NCBI GenBank assembly: GCA_026770705.1
Contig: JANJGN010000018.1
Coordinates: 95,232,001-95,296,000, forward strand
Length of the DNA: 64,000 nucleotides
Source of the DNA: Isurus oxyrinchus
Lineage: Eukaryota
Direction: 5' to 3'
The notes under the pieces are model-generated. The model did no database searches. It was not told the DNA's origin and was given only the letters and a program-made list of their open reading frames with translations. Position numbers and translations under genes: made by a program. Each line of letters starts with the position of its first letter. Within the stretch, counting starts at the first letter, position 1. Below are positions 35,746 through 60,865 of this stretch, in pieces.

Positions 35746-37244
35746 AGCACAATCAAATATAAAAATAAAAGTCAGATAGCCAACTTGCATAGTATCTCAA
35801 TATACAGTACACAGAGCCAGAAACAGATTTTTGCTTGACTTATTTTGATGCTGGATGAAGACAGCAAGAATTCTACCAACAATGCTTTTTTTGCTAGCCA
35901 GATGTTGTCACAAAGACAACTTTTCCCTACTATTTCAACTCTACAAGTGTTGAAATCACGTGACTGACAATCCAATTCCAATCACAACAAACTGATATTT
36001 TGTGGTGCTGAAGTGAAAGTATCAGTTCTGTATAGAATATCTTTTTCACCAGAGGTCTAAGCATAGAAAGCAAAGTAATGTTAAAAGATATTTTTAGAAG
36101 GGCTGCTTTATTGAGACCAACCAAAATTAGTCTGAGATTTGGTTCTGAACCTGCCTTAGGACACCAAAAGTTAATCCCAAAAGGTAATTATGGACAGTTT
36201 TCATTTGACTTATTGAAAATAACACTGGCAATACACCCAAAAGAAAATCTATGTTTCCTTAGTCAAATAAGTTAGTTGGCATTGAGAAACTCTTGAATAA
36301 ACATTCAACCATTAAAACAAGTTTCATTAAATGTTTACTGACATTATAGTTTGCTGTTTGCAGGTGTACCAGATCTCAACATACTACAAATTAGTGCACT
36401 GTCATAATTCGTAAAGTTTAACAATTTGCCATAGGACGTTGCACCTGCACACATCAGGTTAATTTTAACACCTGTACACGCTTTGCATATTGAAAAGGTT
36501 TTTTTTAAATGTTTAACATGTTAAGTGGCTTGCCCTTGTCTTGTATTACAATCCAACAGGTAACGAGCATTTTTGGCAGGCATCACTCCAATCATGGTTT
36601 TACAAAAGAACAATCTTCTGTTAAATGGACATGACTATGGCAAAGGAAAATTTAAAAAAAAACAATGCACAACTATAGGCTGGGTGTCAATACTGACTTA
36701 AACTGTACATCAACTGTGCACACTGGCCAAATAAGCCTTAACCAAACACAAGCCAAATGTCTCAGATTCAAATTTCTCCAGATCACTGAAATAACACAAC
36801 TGTCATATGCATATGAAAATAACGTGAATATTTCTAATTCATGACTTGATTGCTGTGCCCTGTGCTAACACTCGGGTACACAACATTTACTGTAACACTT
36901 CCAGTACAGTAGCACTGTCAAAAAGAGTCCATCTTCTTCCTCTCTCACTCTGAGCTAACATATGAATTAACAACCGTCGCTTTAAAAAAGATAATCCAAC
37001 CAAACCAAAAAAAAAAGAAATGCCTTTAAAAAGCGTCAGGCCGTTTTGGCGTAAAACGACAAGGGGGGAAAAAAAACTGAAACACAGAATAAACTGGGCG
37101 AGGAATCAGAATGAAACAGACAAACCTCTTCCCGTTTTCTCTTCTATCCCTCTCCCTCCCTCTGGTCTGTCTGTCTGCCTGTCGCCAGGCCGCTCTCGTT
37201 GCTGAGAAGCCGCCACCTGGGTTTACAGTCCCCTCCTTTCTAAA

Positions 37245-37356
37245 GGGGAGGGAAGGAGGGGGGGGGGAGGGAAGGAGGGGGGGGTGGGGGTGGTAAAGGA
37301 AGATTTAGGGGTTGGAGGGTTGGGGGGTCTGGGGAGGGAGGGAGGGAGGGGGGGGA
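37245..37356 (+). other. G-run cluster, potential G-quadruplex at start of intron 1
   Basis: More than ten runs of 3 or more G with short loops (ggggagggaaggaggggggggggagggaaggagggggggtgggggtgg...). Confidence 0.7.
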
Positions 37357-37422
37357 AGAGTGTAGAAAAATAATACACAAATTTCCAGTGCGGGAATTCA
37401 GGATCGTCTCATCCCCACCTAC

Positions 37423-37900
37423 CCCAGGTTGTCTCCCGTCCCCTCGGAGCCAATTCTTATTTGGGTTTAAATTGTGCCTCTGCTCTTCTTTCCCACCCCC
37501 CTCCCCCCCTCTCTCTCTTTCTATTTTCCCCTCTCTCTTTTTTTATTTCACAAAATGGCGCGCACTACAAACCTGCGCAACAGCAAACACCTCCTCGGCG
37601 CCGCCTTTTTTCAAACCCGCTTTACACCTCCTTGCGCTGCTCGCCAGCCCGACTTCTCCGGCCGCTCCGACCATTCAACTTTCTCCTCCCGCTCTCCCGA
37701 ATCTCCCGATCTGGCCTTCGAAATTTTTCAGAATGCAGGGGAGGGAGGGAGGGGGGGGGGGAAGGAAAGGTGGAGTTTGAAAAAAAATTATTTTCCCCCC
37801 CCCGCGGAAGAAAAAAATATTCCGAGGCGGGAAAGCCCTGAAAAAAAAATTTTTCTCTCTCTCTTCTCTCTCCGCTTAACAACAAAATGGCGACAGACGG
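37423..37900 (-). other. Probable non-coding first exon of the minus-strand gene (TSS approximate)
   Basis: Donor CCTGGG|gtaggt at 37423/37422 inside the CpG island; sense-strand GCCATTTTG (YY1) just downstream of the upstream motif cluster; downstream exon candidates are on the same strand. Confidence 0.6.
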
Positions 37901-40210
37901 AGCGCGTTGCTATGGAGACTGTCAATCACAGCGGATGCCCCGGATGAGGCGCTGACGTCAGCAAGCGGGAGAGGGGGGGGGAAAGGTGGGGCCTCGAGCC
38001 GGCGGAGGACGTTGCCAGCCGGCCTCAGTGCCCCGGATGCCGCACTGATTAACAGGGCGGGGCCTGTTGCCATGGGAAACCGTCAATCAGACCCGGCCCA
38101 AAGAAAAAAGCCACAGAAGGCTTGTTGCAAGGCTGTGGAACCTGCTGGGCGGTGTTTTTATTTAACATGGTTGCTCTGTGCCAAGGTTACCCAACTGTGT
38201 GTATGTTTTTTTTTCCTTGTTGTTGCCCTTAAAACAATCATCGTCTTAATTCTATTCGCCTTTTGCTCGGCAAAAATTGATGCAAAACTTTTCTATAAGA
38301 CTTAATAAGTCTTCATTACTTTATAATTACCCGCTCACCCAAAACAATAAAATATTAACATTGCATCCGTGAACGTTGACCCATATTGGTGCATTTTTTT
38401 TGGACCTGGGCTGAAATATTTAAAATTGTGCCAGTGAAGGTTAATTTTTTTTTAAATTGCAGGCGCTTGTTTTATTTTCACATCTTCCCGAAATAAATTT
38501 CTCGAATGAAGATGACCTACAAACACACAAATATAAACGATGTGACAGAATGGACTTCCCTCCCATTGAGCACGGTTGTCGGGCTGCAGGTTTAGTTAAA
38601 CGATGAAAAGTATTTGAATGATTGAAGTTAAACGCTCAAAAGCCACTTCTGTAGCCGGAGGGACATCAATTTATCTTATAGAACCGCCCCCCCCCCATCA
38701 AAAAAACGCAACGAATAATATTAGAACGTGTACTTGGCTTTAAAGGTATCCTCTTTTTATGCATATCTTTTTATATTCTGGCAAGAATAGTGAAAACGTG
38801 CTTTCATTCCCAGCACCTTTAGTTACAAAAGGACGATTTCATGTGTCGTGTATCAGGCAAGCGACCGGCTCTTCGCTCCATTCTCATCAGCTGGCGTGAC
38901 ATTCACAGTTTTAATGAGTTATGTGTCTGGCACACACTGCGTAGGGGGACGGGCTCAAGCTGTAGGTGAGCAGGAATGCAAAGCTTCAGACTTTGCACAG
39001 CCTTGCTTGTATTTTGAATGGTGACAGTGGCAAGGTAACACTGCTTCATTGTTAATTTGCTCGTGCTGGCATTGAAATATTATATCTATGACCTGCAATT
39101 CTGATTAAGACATGTCACTCCGTTAAATTATCTTTTTTGGGTGGGAGGGGGCTGGAAAAAAGGTGAATAAAGGTAAACTGGATCGCCCATTTGTAATAAA
39201 AATCACAGTGCAGATGCTGAATGAATGACGCATACCTGTACAGTCCCAGGTTCACTCCCCAGATTCTGGTGTTGTCCAGCCTCAGCTCGGACAGCAATAG
39301 AAGTCATTGTAAATATTTTCAGCATTCCTACCTGAGCGTGGAACAGAGACAGATTCAGCCGCAATACAACTTAGAATCAAATGGATGACTGACATCTGCC
39401 ATCCATGCTCGCACTTGAGGCGACTTGAACAAGGGAAATTAAAGACCTTCTGGAAACTCGACATGTCACAGACAAGCAGGTATCTTAGATCTTTCTCAAT
39501 CTTAGTTTAGTGTATGTAACGGCGCAACAGATTAATTTATGTTAACGCAGATAACCTTTCCTGCCTCTATCCACCCAGATACAGTCACGATACTGGAATT
39601 TGTCACCTGAATGCTCCCCTTTTGAAGAGGATCTCAGGAGTACTCCCCTGAGTTATCCCCACGGGTGAGGCGTTTGTCGCTTGCTGACCTTGCAAGGAAC
39701 AGCGCGCATGTCATCTGCCTGCAGCACAATGCTCCATAGCAGCAAACCCGCGTGTTTGTCGGGGATTGAATTCAAACAAACCATTGGATTGTGATCCGAA
39801 TATATAGTGAAACGCATGCATGGGGATACAGTGCATTATCTGCCATGCCCACACTATGTATGCGAATACGATCTTTTTCAATCACTGGCAATGCCAAGAC
39901 GCAGTGGAATATCTTGCAGCTCAGATAAAAAGAACAAGCTGTTCCTTCCCATGACCACTGATCCAGCTCAGCTCCTATCAGACATATACATGTGGATTAC
40001 AAACTCCCCAATGCATTGACTGGGAGAGGATTTGCGCAAAGCGTTCCTTTCAGCTGGTTAAAGGTATCCTTACTTAAACTTACTGATCAGCCCATCTGAT
40101 TTAAATGCTGTTCCCAGGTTAGATCTTTTAAAGATGTAGCTGTGTTGTTATAATTTAGAATGAAGCTCCGGTAATACTGCTTTCAAAAATTAAAGAAGAA
40201 ACAATAAAAA

Positions 40211-40350
40211 GAGTTCCGAAGAAAAGTCATGTTGAACTTGAAACGTTGACTCGGTTTCTCTCTCCAGAGGTTGCCAGACTTGCTGTGTTTTTCTAGCACT
40301 TTCTGTTTTTATTTCAGATTTCCAGCATCTGCAGTGTTTTTCTTTCATTT
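40211..40350 (+). mobile_element. Penelope-like pLTR-derived copy (degenerate hammerhead)
   Basis: gagttccgaagaaaagtcatgttgaacttgaaacgttgactc...atttcagatttccagcatctgcag. Confidence 0.75.
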
Positions 40351-40583
40351 TACTGTTTTCAGAAATGGTTGAACATTTTGTTCTAGCAAAATAGCAATGC
40401 TGTCTACTTTCACCTTGCTAAGTCTGAAACTCTCCCAGTCTGCCCACTCAGATCCCAGACTGGCCTTTCTGTGACACTGAGTACACTCTTCATTGTGTTG
40501 TGTGACATTGCCACTCTGTTTATTAAATTGGATAGATTCAGAAATGTGACAGCTCAAAACTGAACAGTCTTGAGGTGCAGGCA

Positions 40584-40720
40584 TAAAGGCAAAATATTGC
40601 AGATGCTGGAAATCTGAAACAAAAACAAAAAATGCTGGAAAAACTCAACAGGTCTGACAGCATCTGTGGAGAAAAATACAGAGTTAACGTTTTGAGTCCG
40701 TATGACTCTTCTTCAGAGTC
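40584..40720 (-). mobile_element. Penelope-like pLTR-derived copy (CUGAAGA core intact)
   Basis: Minus strand: CTGAAGA-A-GAGTC-ATACG-GACTC-AAAA-CGTTAACTC..., followed by the same tail as the other copies. Confidence 0.75.
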
Positions 40721-44607: not shown

Positions 44608-45045
44608 ATAAAGGGAGGGGGGGCCAGGTGGAACAAAAGGGAATGTCAGGCATAGGTCAGAGGATGGGGGAGATGAAATACAAAAGGTGTCATGGAACAA
44701 AAGGCAAAGGGGGTGGTAATGGTAGTGGTAAAGAAGCAAAGCATTAGTCATAGTAAAGAAACAAAGCTAAATACTGGATCGATGCTTAGTTTCTTTACCA
44801 TCATTACCACTCCCTTTGCATTTGGTTCCATGAAATCTTTGGTATTTAATCTCCTATAAATTATGCCTGACCTTCACCTTTACCCCACCTAACCCTGCCT
44901 CTTTTTCGACATCATAAAACCCATCACATTTCTACCTCTCTTCTGTTCCAAAAAAGAGTCATATTGGACTCAAAATGTTAACTCTGTTTCTCTCTCCACA
45001 GCTGCCAGACCTGCCAAGTTTTTACAACACTTTTTGTTTTTATTA
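44608..45045 (+). mobile_element. Penelope-like element end with inverted plus direct pLTR segments
   Basis: 44689-44746 is the reverse complement of 44781-44837; the direct arm ends in the hammerhead-bearing module gagtcatattggactcaaaatgttaactc...gctgccagacctgcc. Confidence 0.7.
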
Positions 45046-45084
45046 TTGTGCTGGAATATTCTCCACTTAACTAGATGAGTGCAG

Positions 45085-45175
45085 TGTTAATGGTATGTTA
45101 ATTGTATTATTAAGGTTAAGGATACGTCGGTGGAGGGCATTGCTTGATTACGTACCTTGAGCACATATAAAGAGA
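45085..45175 (+). repeat. Copia 5' LTR, left part
   Basis: tgttaatggtatgttaattgtattattaaggttaagg matches the 3' LTR start tgttaattgtattttaattgtattattaaagctaagg (60264). Confidence 0.85.
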
Positions 45176-45189
45176 GCACTACATGTGCG

Positions 45190-45575
45190 AATCATAGTCT
45201 CATAGATAGACTCATAGATGTCGACAGCACAGAAGGAGGCCATTTGGCCTATTGTGTACACTCTGGACAACAAAGATCTGATTACACTAATCCCATTTTC
45301 CAGTGCTTGACCCATCGCCTTGGAGGCTATGGCAATGCAAGTGAATATCTAAATACTTCTTAAATGTTATGAGAGTTTATGACTCAACCATCCTTTGAGG
45401 CAGTGAGTTCCAGACTCCCACCACCCTCTGGGTGAAAAAAATTCTCCTCAACTTCCCTCTTAGCCGTCTACCTCTTACCTTAAATCTATGCCCCCTGGTT
45501 ATTGACCCCTCTTCTAATGGAAAAAAATGCCTCCCTATCCACCCTATCTATGCCCCTCATAATCTTATACATCTG
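45190..45575 (-). mobile_element. CR1 (minus strand) 3' end; continues at 49967-50925
   Basis: (catag)-type tail repeats at 45191-45218 and reverse-complement CR1 3' sequence; interrupted by the plus-strand CR1. Confidence 0.8.
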
Positions 45576-45863
45576 TTTCCATCCATCCCTCCCTACTCCT
45601 CAAACCTAAATAAAAAGAGAGAGGAAGAGGCAGTGCCTTCAGGAGCGCACCAGACCTGCGAGGGACAGTGTTCTGAAAGTGGATTTTAAAGAAAAAGCAG
45701 CTGATTGGTGAGTAAATCCTGGGAGCAGGCTCGGAGGGAGGAGCACTGGAGTGGTGAGTATAAATCTAGCTTACCTCAGGGATTCGCGGCCTTGTCTCCA
45801 GGGAGTAGACTCTGAGGGAGGAGCACTGCAAAGCTAATTAATAAATTAATGATCGAAGTAGAG

Positions 45864-46820
45864 ATGGCTGGGCAGGTGATGTGCTGTAGCTGTATGATGT
45901 GGGAGCTGACAGATACCATTGAGAGCCGCAGTGACTAGATCTGCAGCAAGTGTTGGTTGCTGGAGGAACTCCAGCTCAGAATTGATGAGCTGGATTCCGA
46001 GCTCCTTACGCTGTGGCACATCTGGGAGGGGGACCGTTACCTGGATGCTTTGTATCAGGAGGCGGTCACACCCGGTAGATTAAGTACCTCAAGTCCGGTC
46101 AGTGGTCAGGGTCAGCAGAGTGTGACTGCAAGTGAGGCAGGTAGAGGGATCCTGTGTTCAGGATCAGAGGAACCTCAGCTCTTGACCTCATCCAGCAGGT
46201 ACGAGGTACTTGCTCCCTATGTAGATGAGGAAGAGGGCTGTAGGGAGAATGAGCCAGCTGACCATGGCACCTTGGCACAGGAGGCCATTCAAGAGGGGGA
46301 AGCAAAAAGACAAGTAGTAGTTGTAGGGGATTCTATAATTAGGGGAATTGATAGCTTCCTTTCTAAGCAGGATTGAGAATCCTGCATGGTATGTTGCCTC
46401 CCTGGTGCCAGGGTGAGGGACATCTCTGACTGGCTTGAAAGGATATTGGAGAGGGAGGGGGAGGATCCAGTTGTTGTGGTCCACGTCAGGACAAATAACA
46501 TAGGTAAGACTAGAATAAAGGACCTGTTTGGGGATTATCAGGAACTAGGAACTAAATTAAAGAACAGGTCCTCAAGGGTTATAACCTCCGGATTACTACC
46601 CAAGCCACGTGCAAATTGGCATAGGGATGCGAGAATAAGGGAAGTAAACATGTGGCTAAAGGAGTGGTGCGGGAAAGAGGGATTCCATTTCGTGGGGCAC
46701 TGGCGTCAGTATTGGAACAGGAGGGATCTGTACCATTGGGACGATCTCCACCTGAACTGATCTGGGATCAATGTTCTAGCGAGAAGGGTAAATAGGGTGG
46801 TCAACAGGACTTTAAACTAG
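45864..46820 (+). pseudogene. CR1 ORF1 (zinc finger/coiled coil plus SGNH esterase-like domain), disrupted
   Basis: MAGQVMCCSCMMWE...*ICSKCWLLEELQLRIDEL; VVVVGDSIIRG; CCLPGARVRD; VVVHVRTNN; WDDLHLN; several in-frame stops. Confidence 0.9.
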
Positions 46821-47049
46821 AAAGTTGGTGGTGGGGATGGAAGGGTAAAACTCCAAGAAGCATGACTAATGGGAAACAAAGCAGCAGGTTAGCGTGTGGG
46901 GGGTGGACTCAACTTCATGGAAAATTATGAAAAAACTGAAAAGAAAGGAGAGCCCAGGAGAGGCTATTAAAGTCTCCAGAACACAAAATAGCACAGAGTG
47001 TTTGGAAAGGGCTAGGAATCTAACTTCAAGCACATCAGATAAAGGGACG

Positions 47050-49878
47050 ACAATGAGAAAGGGGACGGGAAATACAGGACTGAAGGTGTTGTATCTGAAT
47101 GCACGCAGTATACGAAATAAGGTAAATGAGCTTGTGGCGCAGATTGAAATTAGCAGGTATGATGTGATGGGCATCATGGAGACATGGCTGCAAGGGGATC
47201 GGGACTGGGAGCTAAATATCCAAGGATATATATCCTAACGAAAAGATAGGCAGGTTGGCAGAGGGGATGGGGTTGCTTTGTTAGTAAGAAATGAAATTAA
47301 ATCGATATCAAAAAATGACGTAGGGTCAGATGATGTAGAATCTCTGTGGGTAGAGTTGAGGAACCGCAAAGGTAAAAAAAAACCATAATTGGAGTTATGT
47401 CCAGGCCTCCGAACAGTAGTCAAGATGTGGGGCACAAGATACACCAGGAGATAGAAAAGTTGTCTAAGAAAGGCAAAGTTACAGTGATCATGGGGGATTT
47501 CAATATGCAGGTAGACTGGGAAAATCACATTGGTAGTGGATCCCAAGAAAGGGAATTTGTGGAATGTCTATGAGATGGTTGTTGGAGCAGCTTGTGGTGG
47601 AGCCCACTAGGGAACAGGCAATTCTAGATTTAGTGATGTGTAATTAGGCAGATTTGATAAGGGAGCTTAAGGTGAAAGAACCCTTAGGAGGAAGTGACCA
47701 TAATATGATAGAATTTACCCTGCAATTTGAGAGGAAAAAGCTAGAATCAGATGTAACAATGTTACAGTTGAATAAAGGCAACTATAGAGGCATGAGGGAG
47801 GCGCTGGCCAGAATTGACTGGGAGATGAGCCTAGCAGGAAAGACAGTGGAACAGCAATGGCAGGAGTTTCTGGGAGTAATTTGGGAGATACAGCAAAAAT
47901 TCATCCCTAGGAAGAAGAAGCATACTAAAGGGAGGACGAGGCAACAATGGCTGACAAAGGAAGTCAGGGAAAGCATAAAAGCTAAAGAGAAAGTATACAA
48001 TGCGGCGAAAAGCAGTGGGAAACCAGGGGATTGGGAAGCCTTCAAAGACCAACAGAGGACAACTAAAAAAGAAACAAGGAGGGAGAAGATTAAATATGAG
48101 GGTAAACTAGCCAGTAATATAAAAGAAGATTGCAAGAGTTTTCTTTTAGATATATAAAGGGTAAGAGAGAGGCAAAAGTGGACATTGGGCTGTTGGAAAA
48201 TGACGCTGGAGAAGTAGTAGTGGGGAACAAAGAAATGGCGGAGGAACTGAATAGGTACTTTGCGTTAGTCTTCACAGTGGAAGACACGAGTGACATCCCC
48301 AAAGTTCAAGAGAGTCAGGGGGCAGAGGTGAGTATGATGGCCATTACCAAGGAGAAGGTGCTAGGAAAACTGAAAGGTCTGAAGGTGGATAAATCACCTG
48401 GACCAGATGGATGACACCCCAGAGTTCTGAAGGAGATAGCTGAAGAGATAGTGGAGGCGTTAGTGGTGATCTTTCAGGAATGACTGGAGTCAGGGAGGGT
48501 CCCAGAGGACTGGAAAATCGCTAGTGTAACCCCCCCTGTTTAAGAAGGGAGTGAGGCAAAAGACTGGAAATTACAGGCCGATTAGCCTGACCTCGGTCGT
48601 TGCTAAGATTTAAAGTCCATTATTAAGGATGAGATTTCAGGATACTTGGAAGTGCATAGTAAAATAGGGCAAAGTCAGCATGGTTTCATCAAGGGGAGGT
48701 CATGCCTGACAAATCTGTTAGAATTCTTTGAGGAGGTAACGAGTAGGTTAGACAAAGGAGAGCCAATGGATGTTATCTACTTGGACTTACAGAAGGCCTT
48801 TGAAAATGTGCTGCACAGGAGGCTGCTCAATAAGATAAGAGTCCATGGTGTTAGAGGCAAGGTACTAGCATGGATAGAAGATTGGCTGTCTGGCAGGAGG
48901 CAGAGAGTGGGGATAAGGGGGTCCTTCTCAGGATGGCAGCCGGTGACTAGTGGAGCTCCGCAGGGGTCAGTGCTGGAACCACAACTTTTCACTTTATACA
49001 TTAATGATCGAGATGAAGGAACTGAGGGCATCCTGGCTAAGTTTGGAGATGATACAAAGATAGGTGGAGGGACAGGTGGTATTGAGGAGGTGGGGAGGCT
49101 GCAGAAGGATTTGGACAGGTTAGGAGAATGGGCAAAGAAGTGGCAGATGGAATACAACGTGGGGAAGTGTGAGGTCATGCACTTTGGTAGAAAGAATAGA
49201 GGCAAGACTATTTTCTAAATGGGGAGAGAATTCAGAAATCTGGAGTGCAAAGGGACTGGGAGTCCTAGTCCAGGATTCTCTTAAGGTTAACTTGCAGGTT
49301 GAGTCGGTAGTTAGGAAGGCAAATGCAATGTTGGCATTTATTTTGAGAGGACTAGAATATAAAAGCAGGGATGTGCTGCTGAGGCTTTATAAAGCTCTGG
49401 TCAGACCATATTTAGAATATTGTGAGCAATTTTGGGCCTCATCTCAGGAGGGATGTGCTGGCCCTGGAAAGTGTCCAGAGGAGGTTCACGAGAACGATCC
49501 CAGGAATGAAAGGCTTAACATATGAGGAACGTTTGAGGACTTTGGATCTATACTTGATGGAGTTTAAAAGGATGAGGGGGGATTGGAATGAAACTTACAG
49601 AATACTGAAAGGCCTGGATAGAGTGAACGTGGGGAAGATGTTTCCATTAGTAGGAGAGACGAGGACCCGAGGGCACAGCCTCAGACCTAAAGGGAAGACC
49701 TTTTAGGACAGAGATGAGGAGAAACTTCTTTAGCCAGAGAGTGGTGAATCTATGGAATTTATTGCCAGAGAAGGCTATGGACCCCAGGTCATTGAGTGTA
49801 TTTAAGACCGAGATAGATAGGTTCTTGATTGCTAAGGGGATCAAAGGTTACGGGGAGAAGGCGGGAGAATGGGGTTGA
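47050..49878 (+). pseudogene. CR1 ORF2 (AP endonuclease plus reverse transcriptase), disrupted
   Basis: LYLNARSIRNK, GIMETWL, GDFN, GSDHN, KSPGPDG, QHGFIKGRSCLTNL, YLDLQKAF, PQGSVLEPQLF, KFGDDTK, LYKALVRPYLEYC across ORFs 46894-49706. Confidence 0.95.
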
Positions 49879-49966
49879 GAAACTTATCAGCCATGATTGA
49901 ATGGTGGAGCAGACTCGATTGGCCGAAAGGCCTAATTTCTGCTCCTATGTCTTATGGTCTTATGGT

Positions 49967-50925
49967 CCCTTCTCAACATTCGTTGCTCCAAGGGAAACAA
50001 CCCCAGCCTATCCAATCTTTCCTAATAGCTCAGACCCTCCAGCCCAGGCAGCATCCTGGTACATCTCCTCTGCACCCTCTCCAGTGCAATCACATCCTTC
50101 CTGTAATGTGGTGACTAGAACTGCACACAGTTGTGGCCTAACCAGTGTTTTATACAGTTCCAGCATATTCTCCCTGCTCTCGTATTCTATGCCTCGACTA
50201 ATAAAGGGAAGTATCGAATATGCCTTCTTAACCACCTTATCCACGTGCCCTGCTACCTTCAGGGATGTATGGGTATGAACACCAAGGTCCCTCTGATCTT
50301 CAGTACTTTCTAGTGTCCTACCATTCATAGTGTAATCCCTTGCCTTGTCAGCCGTCCCGAAATGCATTACCTCAATTTTTTCTGTGTTGCATTCCATTTG
50401 CCACTGCTTTGCCCACCTGACCAGTCCATTGATATCTTCCTGCAGTTTATGGCCATCATCCTCACTATTAACTGCCCTACCAATTTTCGTGTTATCTGCG
50501 TACTTCTTGATCATACCCCCTACATTTAAGTCCATATCATTTATCTACACCACAAACAGCAAGGGCTCAGCACCAAGCCCTTCGGAACCCCCTGGAAACA
50601 GACTTCCAGTCACAGAAACATCCCTCTACCATCATCCTCTGTTTCCTGCCTCTCAGCCAATTTTGCATCCAACATTCCACTTTGCCTTGGATCCCATGGG
50701 CTCTTACTTTCTTGACCAGTCTGCCATGAGGGACCTTATCAAAAGCCTTGCTAAAGTCCATGTAGACCTCATCAAATGCATTACCCTCATTACTACTCCT
50801 GATTACCTTCTCAAAAAATGTAATTAAATTTGTCAAACACAATCTTCCCTTAACAGATCCTTGCTGACCAGCCTTGATTGATCCGTGTCTCTCCAAGTGC
50901 AGATATATTCTGTCCCTCAGGGTTC
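49967..50925 (-). mobile_element. CR1 RT fragment (5' continuation of 45190-45575)
   Basis: ORF 50567-50938 YMDFSKAFDKVPHGRLV; ORF 50008-50535 KYADNTKIG...LYKTLVRPQL. Confidence 0.9.
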
Positions 50926-50929
50926 TCCC

Positions 50930-51555
50930 CTTTACCAACAGAGATTTGTCTTGGAGGATGTTGCATACAACAGTCTCAGGTTAAGATGGTTCACAGACTT
51001 GAAGTGGACCTGTATTTTCTGCAGCCTTGAGGAGTCCATGTTCCATGTACATGTAGATTGTGTGAGGTTGCATGGGACTGCTATTCAACTATTTGAGGGG
51101 GCTGGTTCTCAAATTTTGGCTGCGTTTCAGCCCCATGCTCCAGATCTTTGGCCACCTGGTGTAGGAGTGGTGGGGGAGGGAGTGGTGCAGGAAGGGCAGA
51201 ATACCTCCTTGTTAGCCTGTTCCCAGGACAGTCCAAAGTGGCCAACAACAGATCAGGCAGTGGGCCATGGAGCGGGTTGTTACACCCCATGGTTTGCCCC
51301 AATTCTGCAGCTACATTTGTGCCCGGGTGTCCCTGGAGAGAGAGCCTGTGGTGTCGACTGGTATGCTTGAAGCCTTCCATGACCAGTGGCCACTGCAAGG
51401 CTGGAGTGCATCATCAGCCCCCAAAATGACATTTTAATTTGATTTAAGTTTCCTTTCAGAGTTTGTTTTTTTGTTACAGTGCCCCTTTAAGGGGCTGTCA
51501 CCTTTGTTAATTTGTTAATTAGTTTAATTTACTTGTTTATGCTTTTGCAAAAGGG
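50930..51555 (+). mobile_element. Tx1/L1-clade LINE 3' fragment
   Basis: ORF 50885-51370 contains CIFCSLEESMFHVHVDC, a C-terminal CCHC knuckle typical of L1/Tx1 ORF2, followed by a T-rich 3'UTR; 12-bp duplication catataaagaga at 45164-45175 and 51556-51567 brackets the insertion block. Confidence 0.7.
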
Positions 51556-51686
51556 CATATAAAGAGACACTGAGTGTGGGTTAGGCAGAAGGCAGACATT
51601 TGTAATGTTGCATTATGTTAAAAAATCTAATATTAAGTAAAAAATTGGTGTTTGGTTTCCCACTTTAGGATGTCACAAGTTTAACA
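51556..51686 (+). repeat. Copia 5' LTR, right part
   Basis: ttaagtaaaaaattggtgtttggtttcc...tgtcacaagtttaaca matches ttaagtaaaagattggtgtctggtttcc...tgtcacaagtttaaca (60428-60487). Confidence 0.9.
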
Positions 51687-51702
51687 TAGTAGCAGAGAAT
51701 TG
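51687..51702 (+). promoter_or_regulatory. Primer-binding site complementary to initiator tRNA-Met 3' end
   Basis: tagtagcagagaattg versus TGGTAGCAGAGGATGG: 13 of 16 positions match, directly after the LTR terminal CA. Confidence 0.8.
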
Positions 51703-51793
51703 TTACCTAAAGGTGAAAGTTGGAAACAATATTTTTTAAACAAAAAAAAAATTTTTGAACAGAATATTGTATTCTGAATTACTTCTGTGAAGA

Positions 51794-52460
51794 ATGGCTG
51801 AAGGCAAGTGCAAATTATCAAGGGATGATTACCCATCAATTTTCTCCAATTCTGAACATTTTGATTAGTGGAAAAGTGAAGTGGATATGTGGATACGGTT
51901 TATGTCCATACCAAAGAGAAAACAAGGTATGGTCTTAATTGGCATTGTCACTTCCTAACAGAAGTGAAATTAGAAGCATTTTGTGAGCTGGATACCCATC
52001 TGTTGGATACTGACAAAGATTTGGGTCTTCTATTAAGCTTCACGGATGAAATTTACAAGAAAGACCTACAAGGCATGGACAGACTTTGATAGATTTCGAG
52101 AGGTGGATGGACAGTCATTCCATTGATAAATATAACGTGGACTTTAACAGACTGTATAAAAGATTGCAGAAATTCAATTTGGAGATTCTTTATTCAGTGC
52201 CCACTCTTAAATTGCTGGATTGTGCTACAGATGTCACATATGGATAGGTTCCTGGTCTTAACTGGCATTTGGTTCTCAGAAAAAGGCATCCTTTTGGATC
52301 AAATGTCTGCTGCTTTAAAAAAAGTCCTGGGGAAGCAGTCATTTCCAGCAGCCTTGATGGAGCAAATGGACAATCCATGGTGTCACAAAGAATGGAGGAC
52401 TCAATGATTATGGCCTTTTGAGCTTGTTCAAATACAATGTGCTGCGACAGTATAACAGAA
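51794..52460 (+). pseudogene. Copia gag remnant
   Basis: ATG at 51794: MAEGKCKLSRDDYPSIFSNSEHFD*WKSEVDMWIR...; later LLDQMSAALKKVLG; lies right after the PBS. Confidence 0.7.
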
Positions 52461-52464
52461 GAAG

Positions 52465-52600
52465 GGGGAGCTGGTGGCATAGTGGTAATATCACTGGACT
52501 AGTAATCGAGAGGCCCAGGCTAATACTCTGGAGATATGGATTCAAATTCCACCATGGCAGCTGGTGGAATATAATTCAATTAAAAAGTCTATAAAGCTAG
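52465..52600 (+). mobile_element. tRNA-derived SINE 5' half
   Basis: A box tggcatagtgg, B box gattcaaattcc; truncated where the Gypsy LTR starts. Confidence 0.75.
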
Positions 52601-55080
52601 TGTCCTGCCAAGAAAGCAGGCAGAAGGAAAAAACTAAAAGAAATTTGTTTCTCTTCCATATTCTCCTGTTTAAATTCTGTATTTTTTAAATGGACAAATG
52701 GTTGGACTGTTGAAATGGTCACCACTGACCACATGATGGTATTTCTGGAAATTTCTGAGCACTTTAAAAATGGACATCAAACCACTGCAATGTAAAATTC
52801 CTTGCATTGTATAAACATTCCAGCCAAGCCAACACAAAGAATAGTAAATGAGACATCTACACCAGCCAGCTATGGTCAAAGGCAGAGCTATTTGTGTCAC
52901 CTCATCTCCAAAGTTGTACTAATGATTCTACAGTTACCTGCTCAAAACACAATGGGCTTTAACAAGGGCCTCATTAGCTGAACAGCTCCACCCAAAACTG
53001 TCAGATGACCCAGACTTGAGCTGTTTACATTTCTTTAAATATACAGTTTTTGGAATTTATCTTCAGCCACTGTTTAACCTCAGAAGGCTAGTAGCCTGCC
53101 TCTGTCTGCCATTTACCACTTAACAGAGCAGCTGTGGAACTAGTGCTCTGTCCAGGTTTTAAATTACCTGGCTTTCATCTACACTGTGTACTACTGGAAC
53201 ATCTGAACTTCTGTATCTGTGCCTAGAAGACTAATTCATCTCCACGTGTCTCCTTCCATCATGCAAGTCATCGCTTCTGGATAAGCGGATCACCCTGCAA
53301 CAGTTTCAGCCTGCTAACCCTTGAAGGAATGCACCACTGGACTTTTTGATTCTGGACTCTGGATGAAACCAAAATTCTTATTTTTATCCTGGTCTTTGTC
53401 CTGAATCCATTTCTTTCCCTTATCCCTCTTTTATTGTATGAATGCATAAAGGGTTAGATGTTTCCATGTTTTGCGTGTGTGTAAAATAAACTACTCCTCT
53501 TATTTTACCTTATTGCGAGCTTGCTGTGGGTTTATGAGTAGAGAATTCAGTCACTCTAAAACTGAAGGGTTAGGGGAAAATGCACCCCCACTTACAAAGG
53601 GGGAAATCTGTTTACGGACAGGTAGTGAGTAGAGAAATCAGGGCTGTTCTAAATTAAACCCCCTCCTGTCCAATACAGAAATTGAGAGCTCAAGTCCGAC
53701 AAAAACATAATTTGAATTTGACCGGAGTTCAAGTTAAGAGACAAGCCAAGTTAGAGATAAGAATCAATTGGAAGCCAGAAGAGTGAAACTTGGTGGCTGG
53801 AACAAATCTAAAAACACAAGTAACTTACCACAGCAAATTCCTTTTCCCTAACATTTAGAAAATGGCAAAACTTGATGCCCAGATGTTTGTTCAGCAAAGG
53901 AATTTAATTGGTGAATCTTTGGCAGCCCTTAGCACAGAACAATTGAAAGCCATAGCTAGGAAGTACACTTAAAATTGCCCAGCAAGATCAAACAAAGTGA
54001 ACTGATCCAGGCATTGGTAAAACGTTTGGATCTCATGTTAACAATGGAGCAGTTAGATGAAGAGCTTAATCATGACTCCAAATCCCCTCCCCTAGCTAAT
54101 TTTGAGCTGGAAAAGCTTAAATTGCAGCTAGAATTTCAGCAGAGGGAAAGAGAGAGAGGGTGGGAAGAGCGCCAAGGGAACAAGAAAAGGAAAGAGAATT
54201 CTAGCTCCAAAAATTGAAAATGGAGCTAGCAGGTCAAAGGAAGAGAGAGAGAGAGCAGACAGCTAGCTACTGAAAGGAAATCTCTCTCTCTACCCAGTAG
54301 CACCCATTCTCCCCCTAACTCTGAGGCCCTCAAGTATGTGAGATTCATTCCCAAATTTGAAGAGAGTGATGTGGAGTCATTTTTTACCACCTTTGAGAAA
54401 ATGTCCCTCAGAGATCTGGACATTTTTAATTCAAGGGCAGCTATCAGGGAGAGCCCAAGAGGTCTACTTCATGCTGCCTTCTGATGCGTCTGTGAATTAT
54501 TACAAGACTAAGGCTGCCATCTGAAGTGCCTATGAGTAAGAAGCCAGCCCAAACCTACATCAAGTTTGAACGGCTGAAACAACAGATAAGATCCTTAAAA
54601 ATCCCATGCACCAATAAGGGTACTGTTGGAGGAATTCATAAATTGCATACCCTCCAACCCGCAAACACACCTAGTGGAGCAGAGAATTCTCACAGCCAGA
54701 GGAGCAGGAGTCACAAGAGACAGCTACGACCTCACCCATAGGCCTGGAAAACTCAAGTAGGTACTTTACAAAGTATTCCCATGAATTTTGGAAAGATAAG
54801 CGGGGCAACTTAAATAGGAAAGGGCCCCAACCCAGAAAAAAAGAACTCAAAAAAGGGTGTCAGAAGCCCCAAGACAGCCCAAAAGGAGAACTCCCACAGG
54901 CTGGTGTGTTCTCATTGCAACAAAATAGGCCATTCCAGAGCTGAATGCTGGAGATTGTGAAGCAAGCCAGTTGGCCTAGTAGGGCCTCACATGAGTAGTC
55001 CCCCCGAAGAATGCCCCGTTGGGTAGTGCAGTAGAGCCTCTTGCTACAGAAAGCTATCCTTTGGAGGGCATGGCAGATCT
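52601..55080 (+). mobile_element. Ty3/Gypsy (Gmr1-like) fragment: 5' LTR plus gag
   Basis: LTR-like TG...ACA 52601-53677 with aataaa (~53486); degenerate tRNA-Pro-like PBS attgagagctcaagtccg (53681-53698); gag motifs ELEKLKLQLEFQQRERE, IPKFEESDVESFFTTFEK, LSGRAQEVY and knuckle CSHCNKIGHSRAECW (~54907-54951). Truncated before pol. Confidence 0.75.
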
Positions 55081-55119
55081 GCATGTCACAGCAGGTGACA
55101 GGATTGGACTAGCAATAAT

Positions 55120-55615
55120 AAACAAATGAAACCCACAAATGGCTGGGGAACAGTTAACAGGTGCTTCAGATGTGCCTTAGAAACTGCTCAAAGTGGAACT
55201 GTGGGGTTTTCGAAGCAATGCATAACACAGAGAATTCAGAAGATGATGATATTGATCAGCCTGAGGGAAATGTATGAGTCACAAGAAGCTTTAGCCTGGT
55301 AATGAGGGTATTAGTTGTGGACTCATTTAATTGTACCATGTTAGATAGTGGTTGTACCTCGGCAGTGTGTGGAACACATTGTTTAAAATGTTATTTCGAT
55401 TTACTCAGTAGTAAGCATTGAAACAAGATCAGAGAGTATGAAAATTCTACTTTTTTCAGGAACAGGGATGACAACATATTGAGGTCCCTAAAAAAAGTGG
55501 TGATTCCATGCAAAATAGCCAGAGTAAGCCACTTTATCAGTGCTGAATTAGTCTGCAGTGAGATATTCTTGCTGCTGAGCCAGCCTTATGAAAAAGACAT
55601 AAATGATAATGGACT
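55120..55615 (+). pseudogene. Copia gag end and aspartic protease remnant
   Basis: GTVNRCFRC (truncated knuckle), then MLDSGCTSAVCG at 55338-55373 and KVVIPCKIA. Confidence 0.75.
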
Positions 55616-55617
55616 TG

Positions 55618-55680
55618 TGTGAGAATGGATGTTTTTTAAAAATATTTTTGGGAAATATTATGTTATTCTATGAGGAAGGC

Positions 55681-55720
<40 letters not shown>

Positions 55721-56677
55721 ATTTGATTAAGTTGGGGAAAGGTTACAAGAGAAAGGTTGTCTGGAGGGTTTAAGACATAAAAAGATAGAAGTGTTAGGTT
55801 TGTGCATTTGTAATGAGATACTATAGTGATTTGAGGTACAAGTAAATAGGTTGGATCTAACATTTGCATTTTTAGATAAGTTGAGAGTTCAGTTGAATAT
55901 CAAAGGGAAGTCAGAGGTTACAAGAAACTATTTAGCATGTTACAGGAGTTCCATGGCTTAATAGAAGAGAGTATATTACATTTTATTGATCCTAAAAAAG
56001 AAACAAAATAGAACAATGAAGGATTTTATATTTGGCAGGATTTGAGTTTCAAAGAGGTGTGAGAACAATGGAACCTGAGATGAAAGGGCGGGTAAAGGTA
56101 CTTTAGAGTTACTGTGGAGAGCTTAGTCGTTAGCTCTTGGCTATGTACGGAAGAGATCCAGGAAACAGCTTTAGGCTGGGAGAAGATGCAGTTTGAATCA
56201 GCCACCCAGTCAAGCTAGAAATGTCTTGGGCTGCAAAAAGCAGTCTTGTTCTGAAGTCTTGGATTTCCACAGCAGAATGGAAGAGAGTTTAAGAGGTCAT
56301 GTGGTATGCCTTTATTAAAGCTACAGCAGTTTGCCTTGGTAATATTATTGGATTTTTATAGTGAAACATCTATAAAAGAGTATTGCTTGAAAGGTGTTTA
56401 CTTGTGGGTCTCACCAGGTAGGGAGTATTTTGGGGGAATGTTTTGTAAGACTAATTTTAACTATGTAACTGTAATCTTGTGTACTTAAGCTTTATATTCT
56501 TCTTGTTAATTAAACTTTTACTTTTAATTTTTAAAATCACAGAAGTGTCACTGGACTCTTGCTGCTGAGATCAGTATGTTTTCTTCTCATTTTCAGAATA
56601 CAAAAAAGAAAGGTATGGCCCAGAAACCAAGTTTCCCTTAGTTTACTCAGCAATTAACATCTGCTATGGTCAAAACA
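55618..56677 (+). mobile_element. Putative solo LTR inserted in copia pol
   Basis: Non-coding 1.06 kb block interrupting the protease region; TG...ACA termini; imperfect 4-bp flanks cttg/catt; tataaaa (~56371) and attaaa (~56509). Confidence 0.55.
55683..55715. repeat. (TG)n microsatellite
   Basis: Direct read. Confidence 0.95.
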
Positions 56678-56740
56678 CATTAAGCATGGAAAAACAATTG
56701 TTTTTGGAAAGTCAATGGGTCTGCAGCTTACCCAGATGGG

Positions 56741-56967
56741 AGCTTGGCTTAAATAGCCAAGTGGTTATGATACTGGGTTTGTAACCCCAAGATCAAGAGT
56801 TCAAATCTCACAATGGCAAAACTATGAAACAATGTAACTTCATCTGAAACAGATGGAAATGGGTTTGTACTTGAAAAAGTATCAAGAGTTCAAATCTCAT
56901 AATGGCAAACTATGAAACAATGTAACTTCATCTGAAACAGATGGAAACGGGTTTGTACTCGAAAGAG
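56741..56967 (+). mobile_element. Young tRNA-Thr(UGU)-derived SINE with tandemly duplicated 3' part
   Basis: TSD ttacccagatggg (56728-56740 and 56968-56980); A box tagccaagtgg, anticodon loop tttgtaa, B box gagttcaaatc; ~89-bp duplicated unit 56792-56880 / 56881-56968. Confidence 0.8.
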
Positions 56968-56980
56968 TTACCCAGATGGG

Positions 56981-59900
56981 GCACTTATTGCATACCCTGA
57001 ACAAAACCTAATGTTTCTAATCAGAATGTTAAAGAAGTGTCAATGGCATCAGGTGATAAGAATCAGAGGGGGAAAAAAAAACAAATTGTCTTTAAATTAC
57101 ACTCTCCCTTCTTGTTCCAAATTAAACATCCTACTAAAGGATGCAGGTGTGGTTGGTGATGAGTATACAAGGCTCCTCAAAGAAATTAGTGCAAGATGTG
57201 AAATTTGTAAAAAGTATTGGATGATGCTGCCACATCCCATTTAAGTCTTCCATTTTCATGAGACTTTAATCAAGTAGTAGCCATTGTTTAAAAAGGTGTG
57301 GGACAAACATGGAAAGATTTTTCTTTTACACATTGTAGACATGGCAACCAGATTCAGTCTTTCTGCAGTAATACATGGTAAGGACAAAAGGGTGATTGTA
57401 CATAAAGTCATGGGAAAATGGATAGGGACTGGATTTGGTTCACTGGCTAAATTTCTGACTAACAATGGGGGAGGGGGGCGTAGTTTGCTAATGACATGTT
57501 TAGCAACATGTAAAAATATGAACTTATGGTCATGAACACTGCAGCTGAAAGCCCTTTCAGCAATGGATTCTGTGAAAGAAATCACACAGTGATCAATGAG
57601 ATGCTCCATAAGATCTTATATGATCAACCAAACTGCAAGATAATGACTGCCATAGCATGGGCAGTCCATGCAAAGAATTTGCTTCAGATGGTTGGGGGTT
57701 GGGGGGTGGGGTGGGTGATGGGCAGTGGCATTATAGACCTTATCAGTTGGTCTCTGGACTCCCAAATTACCTTCTGTGCAGTGTGATAGTCCCCCTGCCC
57801 TAGCAGGGATCACAATTTTTTCTGCTCACTTGAATGCTTTATGTGCAGACAGAAGGGGATTCATCAGGGCTAAAGTCTCAGAGAAAATTCAGAGACATCT
57901 ATGGCATCGTATAAGACCTTCTGAAATAAACTTAAATCCTGGGGTTTGGTATAGTGTAAAAGAGGGGGCCATGAACAGTGGAAAGGTCCGGCTAAGGTGA
58001 TAGGGTGCGATGCTAAGACAGTAGTTCTCCAACATGGTAGTCAAACTATTAGGTTCCATTCATTATGGTCAACTGGGATTTATTACAAACTTTCAGAATC
58101 TGAGCAGTTAATAGAAGGCAATAATGGACCCTGTACCTCCATATACTCATGTGTTTGACAGTTAAGAGGACCAGAATATGGTATGTCTAGTGCCAGATGG
58201 CGATAGGCAGAATGATGCACAAGACGGGGCCATCACATCCAAAGGACAACTGCCTGGATGTGATGTACATACCAGAAGGGAACAGTGAATGGAGGGATGC
58301 CACTATTGTACGAGGACCAGGGTAAGCTACCAGCAAGTTCAAACATTGGCTTAATGTCCAAGATGATGGCCATGAAGTAAGGTCTTATCAACTGCAGCAT
58401 GGGGGAAAGAGTAGAAAGCAAGAAAATGAAATGCAAGTCCCCATAGTGGATCTGGGAGTGCCTCATGCACTAGAAAATGATCACATACCAGCGATAGAAC
58501 GTCTGATCATGGGAGGGAGAAATCCTGCATTAGTAATCTAGAAAGACATTGAATTGCATGTAGAGGCCATAGCTGATGAGATTATGTAATAGAACAAGGA
58601 CTACAGAACAATCTAGAAGTGCTACCAGAAGTAGAAGCCCTTATGATCAGAAAGTTTTGGTGGCTGCCAACAAATTAGAAGCTAAATTAATAAGAAAGGC
58701 AAAACAAAAATATTTAGATAGTTGGAAGGAATTTGGTGTCTACTCTGAAGTGTTAGTTTGGGGACAGCCAGCCTCATCACATAGATGGATTCGAATGGAA
58801 AAAGTTCTCCCAGATGAGTCTTATAAGAGCAAAGCCATAGTGGCTCAGGGTTTTGAAGACCTACTTGGAGATCAAGAAATTAAAGTGGACGAGCCTACAG
58901 TGGGAAAAGTAAGCCTGAAAATTTTCTTGGCTCTGTTGGCCACATATTTGTAGGAACGTAGGTCAATGATAAAAAAGCTACATTTTTCAGGGAGAAAAAT
59001 TTCAGAGAGAAATATGTTTGAAACAGATTAAAGATGCAAACGATGTAAAAGGGAAGCTATGGAAATTAAACAAATACATATATCGATTGAATGATGCATC
59101 AAGAGTATTTCTTTGTTAGATCTGTCTTGCTGAAAGTAGGCTGCACTCAACTGAAAGCAGATCCAGCAATGCTCTCTGGTACCACAAAGGGAAACTCTCA
59201 GGCATCTTCATGATGGATGTTGATGATTTTCAATGGGGAAGTTCTGTGGAATTTAAGCAATTTGTTATAAATAAGATTGAAGGGGAATTTAGGATTGGAA
59301 GCCAGGCTTTGTGGCCTTAAATATTTAGATCTAGACATTAAACAGAATAGGACTTGAGTAACCTTGAACCAACAACCTTATCTAGTTTTCCAATAAATTG
59401 TGCTTTGTCATCACAGACAGATAATGTTACATATAAAGAAGAAACAGAACCAGTTACGAAGTTTGATTGCACAGTTAAATTGGCTATGCACTCAGACCAA
59501 GACCGAATGCTAGTTTCGATGTATTGGAACTAACTCCTGTGACGAAACATGCTACAGTGGAGGATTTTTTAAGGGCAAATAAAACATTGGAAAATTTAAA
59601 TATGGAGAAATGTGTATTCAGGTTTCCAGCCTTCGGAGACCTGAAGGGCATGAAATTCATCAATTTAGTGATTCTTCTCATGCCAATCTTCTGGATTGGC
59701 ATTCGAGTACAGCTGGTTTCAAAATATTCTCAGTGAGTGAAAATGAAAAATGTTGCCCCTTGGCCTGGGAAGCTAAGAAAACAAAAATGGTGGCTCAAAG
59801 TACGTTAGCTGCAGAAACGCTGGCTCTTGTTGAAGCAATAGAGAGGGGGTTTTACTTGTCAAATATTTTAGGGGAAATGCTATACAGGGGCATTCTGAGA

Positions 59901-60150
59901 ATAGTTTTCCTATTGAATGTTATAAAGATAATTGTTCCCTGTGGGATACGTACATTATGACAAAATGTGTGACTGAAAAAGAAGGTTAAGAATTGACTTT
60001 GCAAATGTGAAAGAGATGCTAGAAAGAAAAGAAATCTTCAAGATCAAATTGGTTGATGCAAGTCATCAAATTGGTGGATTGCTTTACAAAAAGGAATGCT
60101 TGCAGAAAGAGATTGTGGCAGGTCCTTGGAGAAGGAGGTCTTGCATTATG
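56981..60150 (+). pseudogene. Copia pol remnant: integrase, reverse transcriptase, RNase H
   Basis: IN: CEIC, LHIVDMATRFS, FLTNNGG (from DNGGEF), TAAESPFSNGFCERNH. RT: KAIVAQGFED, LWKLNKYIYRLNDASR (59057-59104), MDVDDF (~59213-59230). RH: FSDSSHANL, QSTLAAETLALVEAIE, RLRIDFANVKEML, LVDCFTK. Confidence 0.9.
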
Positions 60151-60247
60151 TTGTGGTGTACAAAATATGGAAGATCATTTTTCTTTCCCCTTCCCTTTTC
60201 TTACATTTGTTTTGAAATATTGTTTGTGTGTTATGAAGTTTTGATTT

Positions 60248-60261
60248 AAAGAAGGGGGGAA
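60248..60261 (+). promoter_or_regulatory. Polypurine tract of the copia element
   Basis: aaagaaggggggaa, 2 nt upstream of the 3' LTR. Confidence 0.85.
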
Positions 60262-60263
60262 TC

Positions 60264-60487
60264 TGTTAATTGTATTTTAATTGTATTATTAAAGCTAAGG
60301 TTATATAGGCATTGATTGGTTAAATATGTATAAAAATGGTTTCATAAAAAGAGACTTCTGGGATGCTGTGTGTTGGTAAGGGAAGACCAGCAATTTGTAA
60401 TTTTGCATTCTGTAAATAAATCTATTGTTAAGTAAAAGATTGGTGTCTGGTTTCCTACTTCACCATCTGGCTGTCACAAGTTTAACA
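60264..60487 (+). repeat. Copia 3' LTR (224 bp, uninterrupted)
   Basis: TGTTAA...TTAACA 6-bp terminal inverted repeat; aataaa at ~60415; homologous to the split 5' LTR. Confidence 0.9.
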
Positions 60488-60865
60488 TGCAGCTTCAATA
60501 GCACTCAGGAAGCTTGACACCATCCCGGCCAAAGCAGCCCACTTAATCTGCATCTCATTCGCCAACATGTTCATTTCCTTTATCACTGGTGCACGGTGGC
60601 TGCAGTGTGTACCATTGGCAAGATGCACTGCAGCAATTTGCCATGGCTTCTTTGATACCACCTCCCAAAATCTATGATTTTTACCACATAGGAGGACAAG
60701 GGAAGCAAGCACTTGGAAACATCACCACCCTTAGGTTCCCCTTCAAGTTACACACCATCCTGGCTGAAAATATATCTTCATTCCTTCATCATCGCGAGGT
60801 CAAACTCTTGAAATTCTCTACAACAGCACAGTGAAAGTACCTTTACCACACAGACTGCAGTGGTC
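60488..60865 (+). mobile_element. Host LINE 3' fragment (continuation of 45048-45084)
   Basis: Joining gctggaatattctccacttaactagatgagTGCAG to cttcaatagcactcaggaagcttgacaccatc restores LEYSPLN*MSAASIALRKLDTI, matching VEFSPLAWMSAASTTLKKFDTI at 8925-9143. Confidence 0.85.

Follow-up and report, generated by a model that had tools for sequence, protein, structure and literature searches.

What occupies the roughly 15 kb between positions 45080 and 60492 of the window (i.e., the whole 64,000-nt stretch of DNA analyzed here), where pieces of several mobile elements lie within one another, and does it represent a retrotransposon lineage new to sharks? We are highly confident that it is a single coding-dead Ty1/copia insertion, likely of the GalEa clade, which duplicated 5 bp on entering an older repeat, is common to two related species, and has since been interrupted by at least seven mobile-element pieces. 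The outer limits, together with the long terminal repeats (LTRs) and priming sites just inside them, are as follows.

45080..45084 (+): left TGCAG of the target-site duplication, lying in a LINE-like host repeat; empty site 9027-9023
45085..45175 (+): first piece of the 5' LTR, with the TGTTAA start; LTR match and 12-bp duplication
51568..51686 (+): second piece of the 5' LTR, with the TTAACA end; LTR match and 12-bp duplication
51687..51698 (+): primer-binding site (PBS) TAGTAGCAGAGA, 10 of 12 letters of the GalEa Met-tRNA site TGGTAGCAGAGC
60248..60261 (+): polypurine tract AAAGAAGGGGGGAA, 14 bases, two bases upstream of the 3' LTR
60264..60487 (+): 3' LTR, 224 bp, TGTTAA…TTAACA, unbroken
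60488..60492 (+): right target-site duplication TGCAG; 3' junction bridged in organism B

The TGCAG duplication was read directly from the window on both sides, and a second copy of the host repeat (9055-8980, minus strand) has both element flanks overlapping on a single TGCAG; because of this empty site, we regard the duplication as real rather than as a chance 5-mer. Host-repeat copies are 76-85% identical to one another. Comparing the 3' LTR with the window by BLAST returned two significant partners, 45085-45124 (87.5% identity, 40 nt, E 1e-8) and 51570-51686 (79%, 124 nt, E 2e-24), which, judging from these alignments, make up a single 5' LTR interrupted by 6.4 kb. In 4 of 4 sequencing runs, contigs join 45124 to 51590 (seen as joint coordinates only), as expected of uninterrupted LTR copies. 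Window reading, BLAST, and the empty site together uphold the ends, LTR pair, and duplication that had been proposed from the letters alone, and two TG…CA LTRs with a target-site duplication are the termini of a Ty1/copia element. Another TGTTAA, near 51504, was rejected as a second LTR start, being without a matching duplication and within the insert bounded by the 12-bp duplication.

Directly after the 5' LTR comes TAGTAGCAGAGA. Counting both strands, the window has seven sites that differ from the GalEa 12-mer at no more than two positions, but this one abuts the LTR. The tRNA-iMet PBS named in the original prediction stands as to its position after the LTR, while its letters agree with the published TGGTAGCAGAGC at only 10 of 12, a level of mismatch that fits the decay of the copia element. 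Among 48 metagenome loci, many of them short or distant, none had the GalEa PBS after CA, a point against the GalEa reading. ARAGORN found no tRNA genes in the window.

The distance between these ends is due to other mobile elements: the copia element, once ~5 kb long, now spans ~15 kb, with at least seven LINE, SINE, and LTR pieces (~10.3 kb) nested in it. Its own length is ~5,083 bp, i.e., the 15,403-bp span minus four inserted blocks totaling 10,320 bp, some ends of which are approximate. That nested insertions account for the 15-kb span, as first proposed, was borne out by duplications, Pfam matches, contig joints, and gaps in the alignment to an intact homologue, P0002 (1472 aa, single ORF).

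45176..51567 (no strand): 6.4-kb nest splitting the 5' LTR; 12-bp duplication CATATAAAGAGA at 45164-45175 and 51556-51567
45191..50921 (-): CR1-like LINE, 5'-truncated, with RT fragment; ends approximate; split by the 45572..49963 LINE; Pfam RVT_1, E 6e-7
45572..49963 (+): CR1-like LINE, near full-length, with GDSL-esterase ORF1, endonuclease, and RT; Pfam Lipase_GDSL_2, Exo_endo_phos, and RVT_1
50922..51555 (+): probable Tx1/L1-type LINE 3' end, first insert into the LTR; 12-bp duplication
52463..52600 (+): SINE-like insert, high-copy; ends approximate; depth peak in bin 52176-52759
52601..55090 (+): second LTR element, truncated, probably gypsy-type; ends approximate; CCHC knuckle at ~54901-54948; raised depth
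55617..56676 (no strand): 1.06-kb high-copy insert, possibly a solo LTR; P0002 colinearity gap and depth
56741..56967 (+): SINE-like insert with internal 88-bp tandem copy; 13-bp duplication TTACCCAGATGGG; depth

Of the LINEs in the 5' LTR nest, two are CR1-like and the 50922..51555 piece is probably Tx1-type; the 52463..52600 insert is SINE-like and the second LTR element (52601..55090) probably gypsy-type. The ends of the 4.4-kb plus-strand LINE are marked by the joint 45571>49964 in 4 of 4 runs, Pfam finds a GDSL esterase domain in its ORF1 (E 3e-10), and we regard this LINE as the youngest layer because it holds few stops. The Tx1-like piece (50922..51555) gave a weak zf-RVT lead in the ESM Atlas (score 0.87) and no Pfam match. 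From the nesting, the order of events at the 5' LTR would be host repeat, copia, Tx1-like LINE, minus-strand CR1-like LINE, and plus-strand CR1-like LINE. The entry site of the Tx1-like LINE, duplicated at 45164-45175 and 51556-51567, is the LTR's TATA-like ATATAAAGAG stretch, perhaps because that LINE family prefers such targets; Tx1 LINEs have been described as target-specific (PMC3747384).

Farther downstream, the first SINE-like insert and the second LTR element sit within the copia gag; the latter comprises an LTR-like part, a PBS-like stretch near 53678, and gag, without pol. The 1.06-kb insert (55617..56676), around which no clean duplication was found, and the last SINE-like insert separate protease from integrase; the tandem duplication in the latter spans 56792-56968 with 94% identity between copies. 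An Rfam match to SCARNA7 (55580-55726) was rejected, as it scored below gathering and overlies a TG repeat. Summed contig depth lay in the hundreds for the copia pol and in the thousands for the Tx1-like and second-LTR pieces, and climbed as high as about a million in the LINE and SINE bins. This fits a low-copy copia family broken up by high-copy repeats, but depth is no copy number. Depth over the copia pol is ~7-20 times that of single contigs, which hints at other family copies and again gives no copy number.

What remains of the element's own genes was mapped by tblastn with P0002.

51795..52460 (+): gag, 5' part; several frame changes; tblastn to P0002 residues 8-180
55091..55301 (+): gag, 3' end, with decayed zinc knuckle; tblastn to P0007 from residue 300 on
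55302..55616 (+): protease; DSGC motif at 55344-55355; tblastn E 5e-20
56980..58062 (+): integrase; seven frame changes; tblastn
58651..59500 (+): reverse transcriptase (RT), broken; tblastn; RVT_2 below cut-off
59501..60148 (+): RT connection and RNase H (RH), broken; STLAAETLAL intact; E 9e-24

The order gag, protease, integrase, RT, RNase H is colinear with P0002 residues 8-1472 (E down to 2e-51), whose blocks fall at 51833-52341 (gag), 55302-55595 (protease), 56980-58062 (integrase), from 58651 (RT), and to 60148 (RNase H). Integrase upstream of RT/RNase H, as in Ty1/copia, is found here, and an RVT_2-family RT comes by way of colinear P0002, in which Pfam places rve upstream of RVT_2 (E 2e-30) and for which the ESM Atlas returned RVT_2 clusters only; the window's own pol pieces stay below the Pfam cut-off (RVT_2 E 0.07-0.1, rve E 0.07). 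Gmr1-type gypsy elements also have the integrase-first order (PMC3587641), yet we still read it as copia because the relatives carry RVT_2. Hence, the original assignment to Ty1/copia is upheld by the LTRs, the position of the integrase before RT, and RVT_2 in P0002. The accompanying description as "structurally complete" is correct as a parts list, but the copy is coding-dead and lacks a long ORF. More than a dozen frame changes separate the matched pieces and in-frame stops add to them, so this copy cannot make proteins. Most GalEa members have a single gag-pol ORF, as do P0002 and P0007; here, the breaks are too many for the original frame to be read off. When active, the element would have been ~5.1 kb long, transcribed from the 5' LTR, and probably read in one gag-pol frame like its intact relatives; family knowledge suggests that its own RT copied it, using a Met-tRNA as primer at the PBS together with the purine tract, and that its own integrase inserted it.

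How old the insertion is can be approached through other genomes and through its LTRs. Parts of the stretch are contained in 20 of 24 listed sequencing runs: four runs of organism A (0.79-0.88 of words), 15 runs of organism B (0.41-0.46), and a further organism B run (0.08). No RNA run is among them, which says nothing about expression. The pieces from organism A hardly differ from the window and give no independent support. In 3 of 3 organism B runs, a single-depth contig (60449-60951) crosses the junction between 3' LTR and flank and differs at 7 of ~500 bases; this junction evidence concerns the right side. In organism B run X6, contig 51493-52049 crosses the insert tail, LTR, and PBS, and eight X6 pieces differ from the window at 76 of 4,070 bases (1.9%). 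The same copia insertion is present in a second species, organism B. Between the LTRs, 24 of 158 confidently aligned bases differ (15%; K2P 0.17 ± 0.04), and the insertion probably predates the A/B split several times over: 15-17% against 1.9% would make it roughly nine times as old if the LTRs were identical at insertion, a ratio that is soft given the transversion excess and the small LTR sample. A published epaulette-shark pedigree rate of 7e-10 per generation (PMC10587355) would imply ~1.2e8 generations, which is implausibly old, so we rejected absolute dating and give no date in years.

The LTR differences themselves (15 transversions against 9 transitions, and several indels of 6-9 bp) are odd for plain neutral decay. 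They raise the alternative that the element is a mosaic, its LTRs drawn from different family members by recombination or gene conversion, in which case the LTR distance overstates the age. The implausible pedigree-rate age (PMC10587355) would also suit such a history, whereas a duplication that matches on both sides and unbroken host-repeat flanks speak for a single integration, and the heavy internal decay and the 76-85% identity among host-repeat copies agree with a similar depth in time. We consider a mosaic unlikely, and it alters the date, not the identity, of the element. As a separate observation, the LTR differences (45085-45127 and 51570-51686 vs 60264-60487) are transversion-rich, unlike the transition-rich differences in sequencing-run contigs. 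On the preferred reading of one old insertion, the copy would now be passive, neutrally decaying DNA.

To which copia clade does it belong? With the RNase H frame as query, 8 of 345 candidates proved to be relatives (best E 9e-24), and a mixed-frame query found 255 (E up to 0.001; matches listed for 150 of the 255); among the matches listed, those with named hosts come from krill, Petrolisthes, Nymphon, and Clytia. With the mid-RT frame as homologue query, 0 of 444 candidates passed; a relative was encoded in 0 of 51 pattern matches on viral contigs; and cluster look-ups for 20 proteins returned krill and one "Retrovirus-related Pol" only, with no shark or fish name. For phylogenetic placement, 249 sequences covering RT/RH, with L026 added by hand, were reduced to 210 by removing near-duplicates at 80%, and six single-frame RT/RH pieces of the element were placed, one per tree, with metagenome copia L047 as root and L026 as second outgroup. 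L047 is a contig whose copia polyprotein, 1469 aa long, is intact and has YGLKQ-type RT motifs. A second run used 60 of the 210 sequences (the 26-member clade of the first run, chosen others, and 17 random ones). All six pieces fell in the ingroup of GalEa-motif proteins, which contains no labeled GalEa reference, and five of the six fell in a 26-reference clade (support 1.0) with krill-cluster and Petrolisthes proteins; the RT N-terminal piece lay outside this core clade in both runs, with weak local support (0.64-0.69). Best identity per piece was 49-71% to relatives vs 7-26% to the two outgroup copias. The ingroup was collected by searching with the copia element and its best match, without labeled GalEa1, Zeco1, Hydra, or CoDi sequences; because of these unlabeled references and the biased ingroup, the trees support but do not prove GalEa membership.

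Structure and motifs point the same way. Against GalEa LTRs of 130-310 bp running TGT…CA, a 5-bp duplication, and a length of ~5 kb, we found 224 bp, TGCAG, and ~5083 bp. From the published GalEa motif set (C2C4H4C, D(T/S)(G/A)C, DD35E, KARLVA, D(V/I)K(A/S/T)A(Y/F), (Y/H)VDD, TRPDI, SDAS, and ADCLTK), DSGC is exact in the window; the rest have decayed there but keep their register, and the closest intact relatives have nearly all of them, with integrase spacing D(57)D(35)E. Motifs cited in the original prediction fared unevenly: PFSNGxCERxH and STLAAETLAL are present and YGLNDASR matches at 7 of 8 positions, but DNGGEF is unreadable. Its GalEa-type call is nonetheless upheld by the LTR start, size, DSGC, the PBS at 10 of 12 letters, and the trees (without labeled references), and on this comparative evidence the element likely belongs to the GalEa clade.

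A question nested in this placement is how the lineage reached sharks. Recent horizontal transfer was rejected, the closest relatives being just 49-71% identical. Ancient horizontal transfer from a crustacean-associated (krill/crab) subclade, rather than descent with teleost Zeco1/Olco1, might be considered, given the 49-71% identity of the nearest named relatives and a relative set without labeled fish elements, and we hold it to be quite improbable. If true, the locus would be among the oldest vertebrate copia insertions retaining both LTRs and target-site duplication, and could be used as a marker of orthology between shark families or orders.

That the element belongs to another branch-1 copia lineage, CoDi-like or unnamed, and merely looks like GalEa is, in our estimate, very unlikely. 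Trees without labeled references leave room for one, as does the D(57)D(35)E of the relatives, compared with D(49-54)D(35)E in the six metazoan GalEa elements tabulated in PMC5445492 (Additional file 5). Yet GalEa is described as the branch-1 clade of metazoans and is recorded for Nymphon and Clytia (PMC11889832), both among the named hosts of our relatives alongside krill and Petrolisthes, and the GalEa table (PMC5445492) has the same LTR start and protease motif and a PBS that agrees at 10 of 12 letters.

At 37100-38300, ~7 kb from the element, lies a GC-rich, CpG-rich island (54% GC in 37001-38000) that looks like a housekeeping-gene promoter and holds AAAATGGCG, which we take to be YY1-like, twice (~37553 and ~37885). 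Several short-repeat copies in both orientations occupy 40255-40676 and 44945-45044, with a 94-nt inverted pair 234 nt apart. That the copia sequence was kept for a host function, as a domesticated gene or a regulatory element near the promoter-like 37.1-38.3 kb, is scarcely credible: it is kept in two species ~7 kb from the island, but its genes are all broken by stops, frame changes, and inserts, its 5' LTR is split, and sharing at 1.9% divergence is expected without selection.

With a dead GalEa-type insertion as the preferred reading, the remaining question is novelty. The suggestion that a GalEa lineage of cartilaginous fish was uncharacterized fails because a 2025 survey reports GalEa clusters from two sharks, seven in Scyliorhinus canicula (719 copia copies) and three in Carcharodon carcharias (210 copia copies; PMC11889832 Additional file 3); our column reading of that file sums to the paper's own "13 species, 46 sequences". 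The same paper found copia in five chondrichthyan genomes, and its sequences may include this very family. A detailed description of a shark GalEa element was not found in the open papers searched (subscription papers, Repbase, and Dfam lay outside this coverage). The element is ordinary, one more dead member of a clade that sharks were already known to carry. LTRharvest-type surveys favor little-damaged copies (PMC11889832, section 13), so a nested copy such as this would plausibly be missed by LTR finders. Its modest value is stratigraphic: five insertion events can be put in order at a single locus that predates a species split and that could serve as a presence/absence marker. The element also exemplifies old nested copies that LTR-finder surveys probably undercount.

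Compared with known systems, the S. canicula and C. carcharias clusters share the clade call and probably the host group, and are little-damaged LTRharvest copies vs an old nested one here (PMC11889832). In the whale shark, Copia and Tx1 repeats are recorded in a CR1-rich genome (PMC8455134), with which the CR1-rich setting and Tx1-like repeats here agree; on this repeat landscape, a shark is a plausible host. The best-scoring, whole-length colinear relatives are P0002, P0007, P0001, and the krill (Meganyctiphanes norvegica) P0004 cluster, sharing YGLxDAxR, STLAAE, and xDCFTK; at 49-71% identity per piece, we regard them as different families. Like GalEa1, CoRex1-2, Cico1, Zeco1, and Olco1, the element measures ~5 kb with ~220-bp LTRs ending in CA, a 5-bp duplication, a Met-tRNA-type PBS, the order PR-IN-RT-RH, and recognizable RT/RH motifs (PMC3587641; PMC5445492). 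CoRex1 is 4949 bp with a 217-bp LTR vs ~5083 and 224 bp here (PMC3587641), the LTR start TGTtaa recurs in Zeco1, Olco1, and Cico1, and the protease DSGC in GalEa1 (PMC5445492 Additional file 5); the LTR end is taaCA here vs ttaCA in Zeco1 and caaCA in Cico1. What sets this copy apart from the known GalEa elements is a PBS at 10 of 12 letters, the decay of most catalytic motifs, and the 10.3 kb of nested inserts that it carries.
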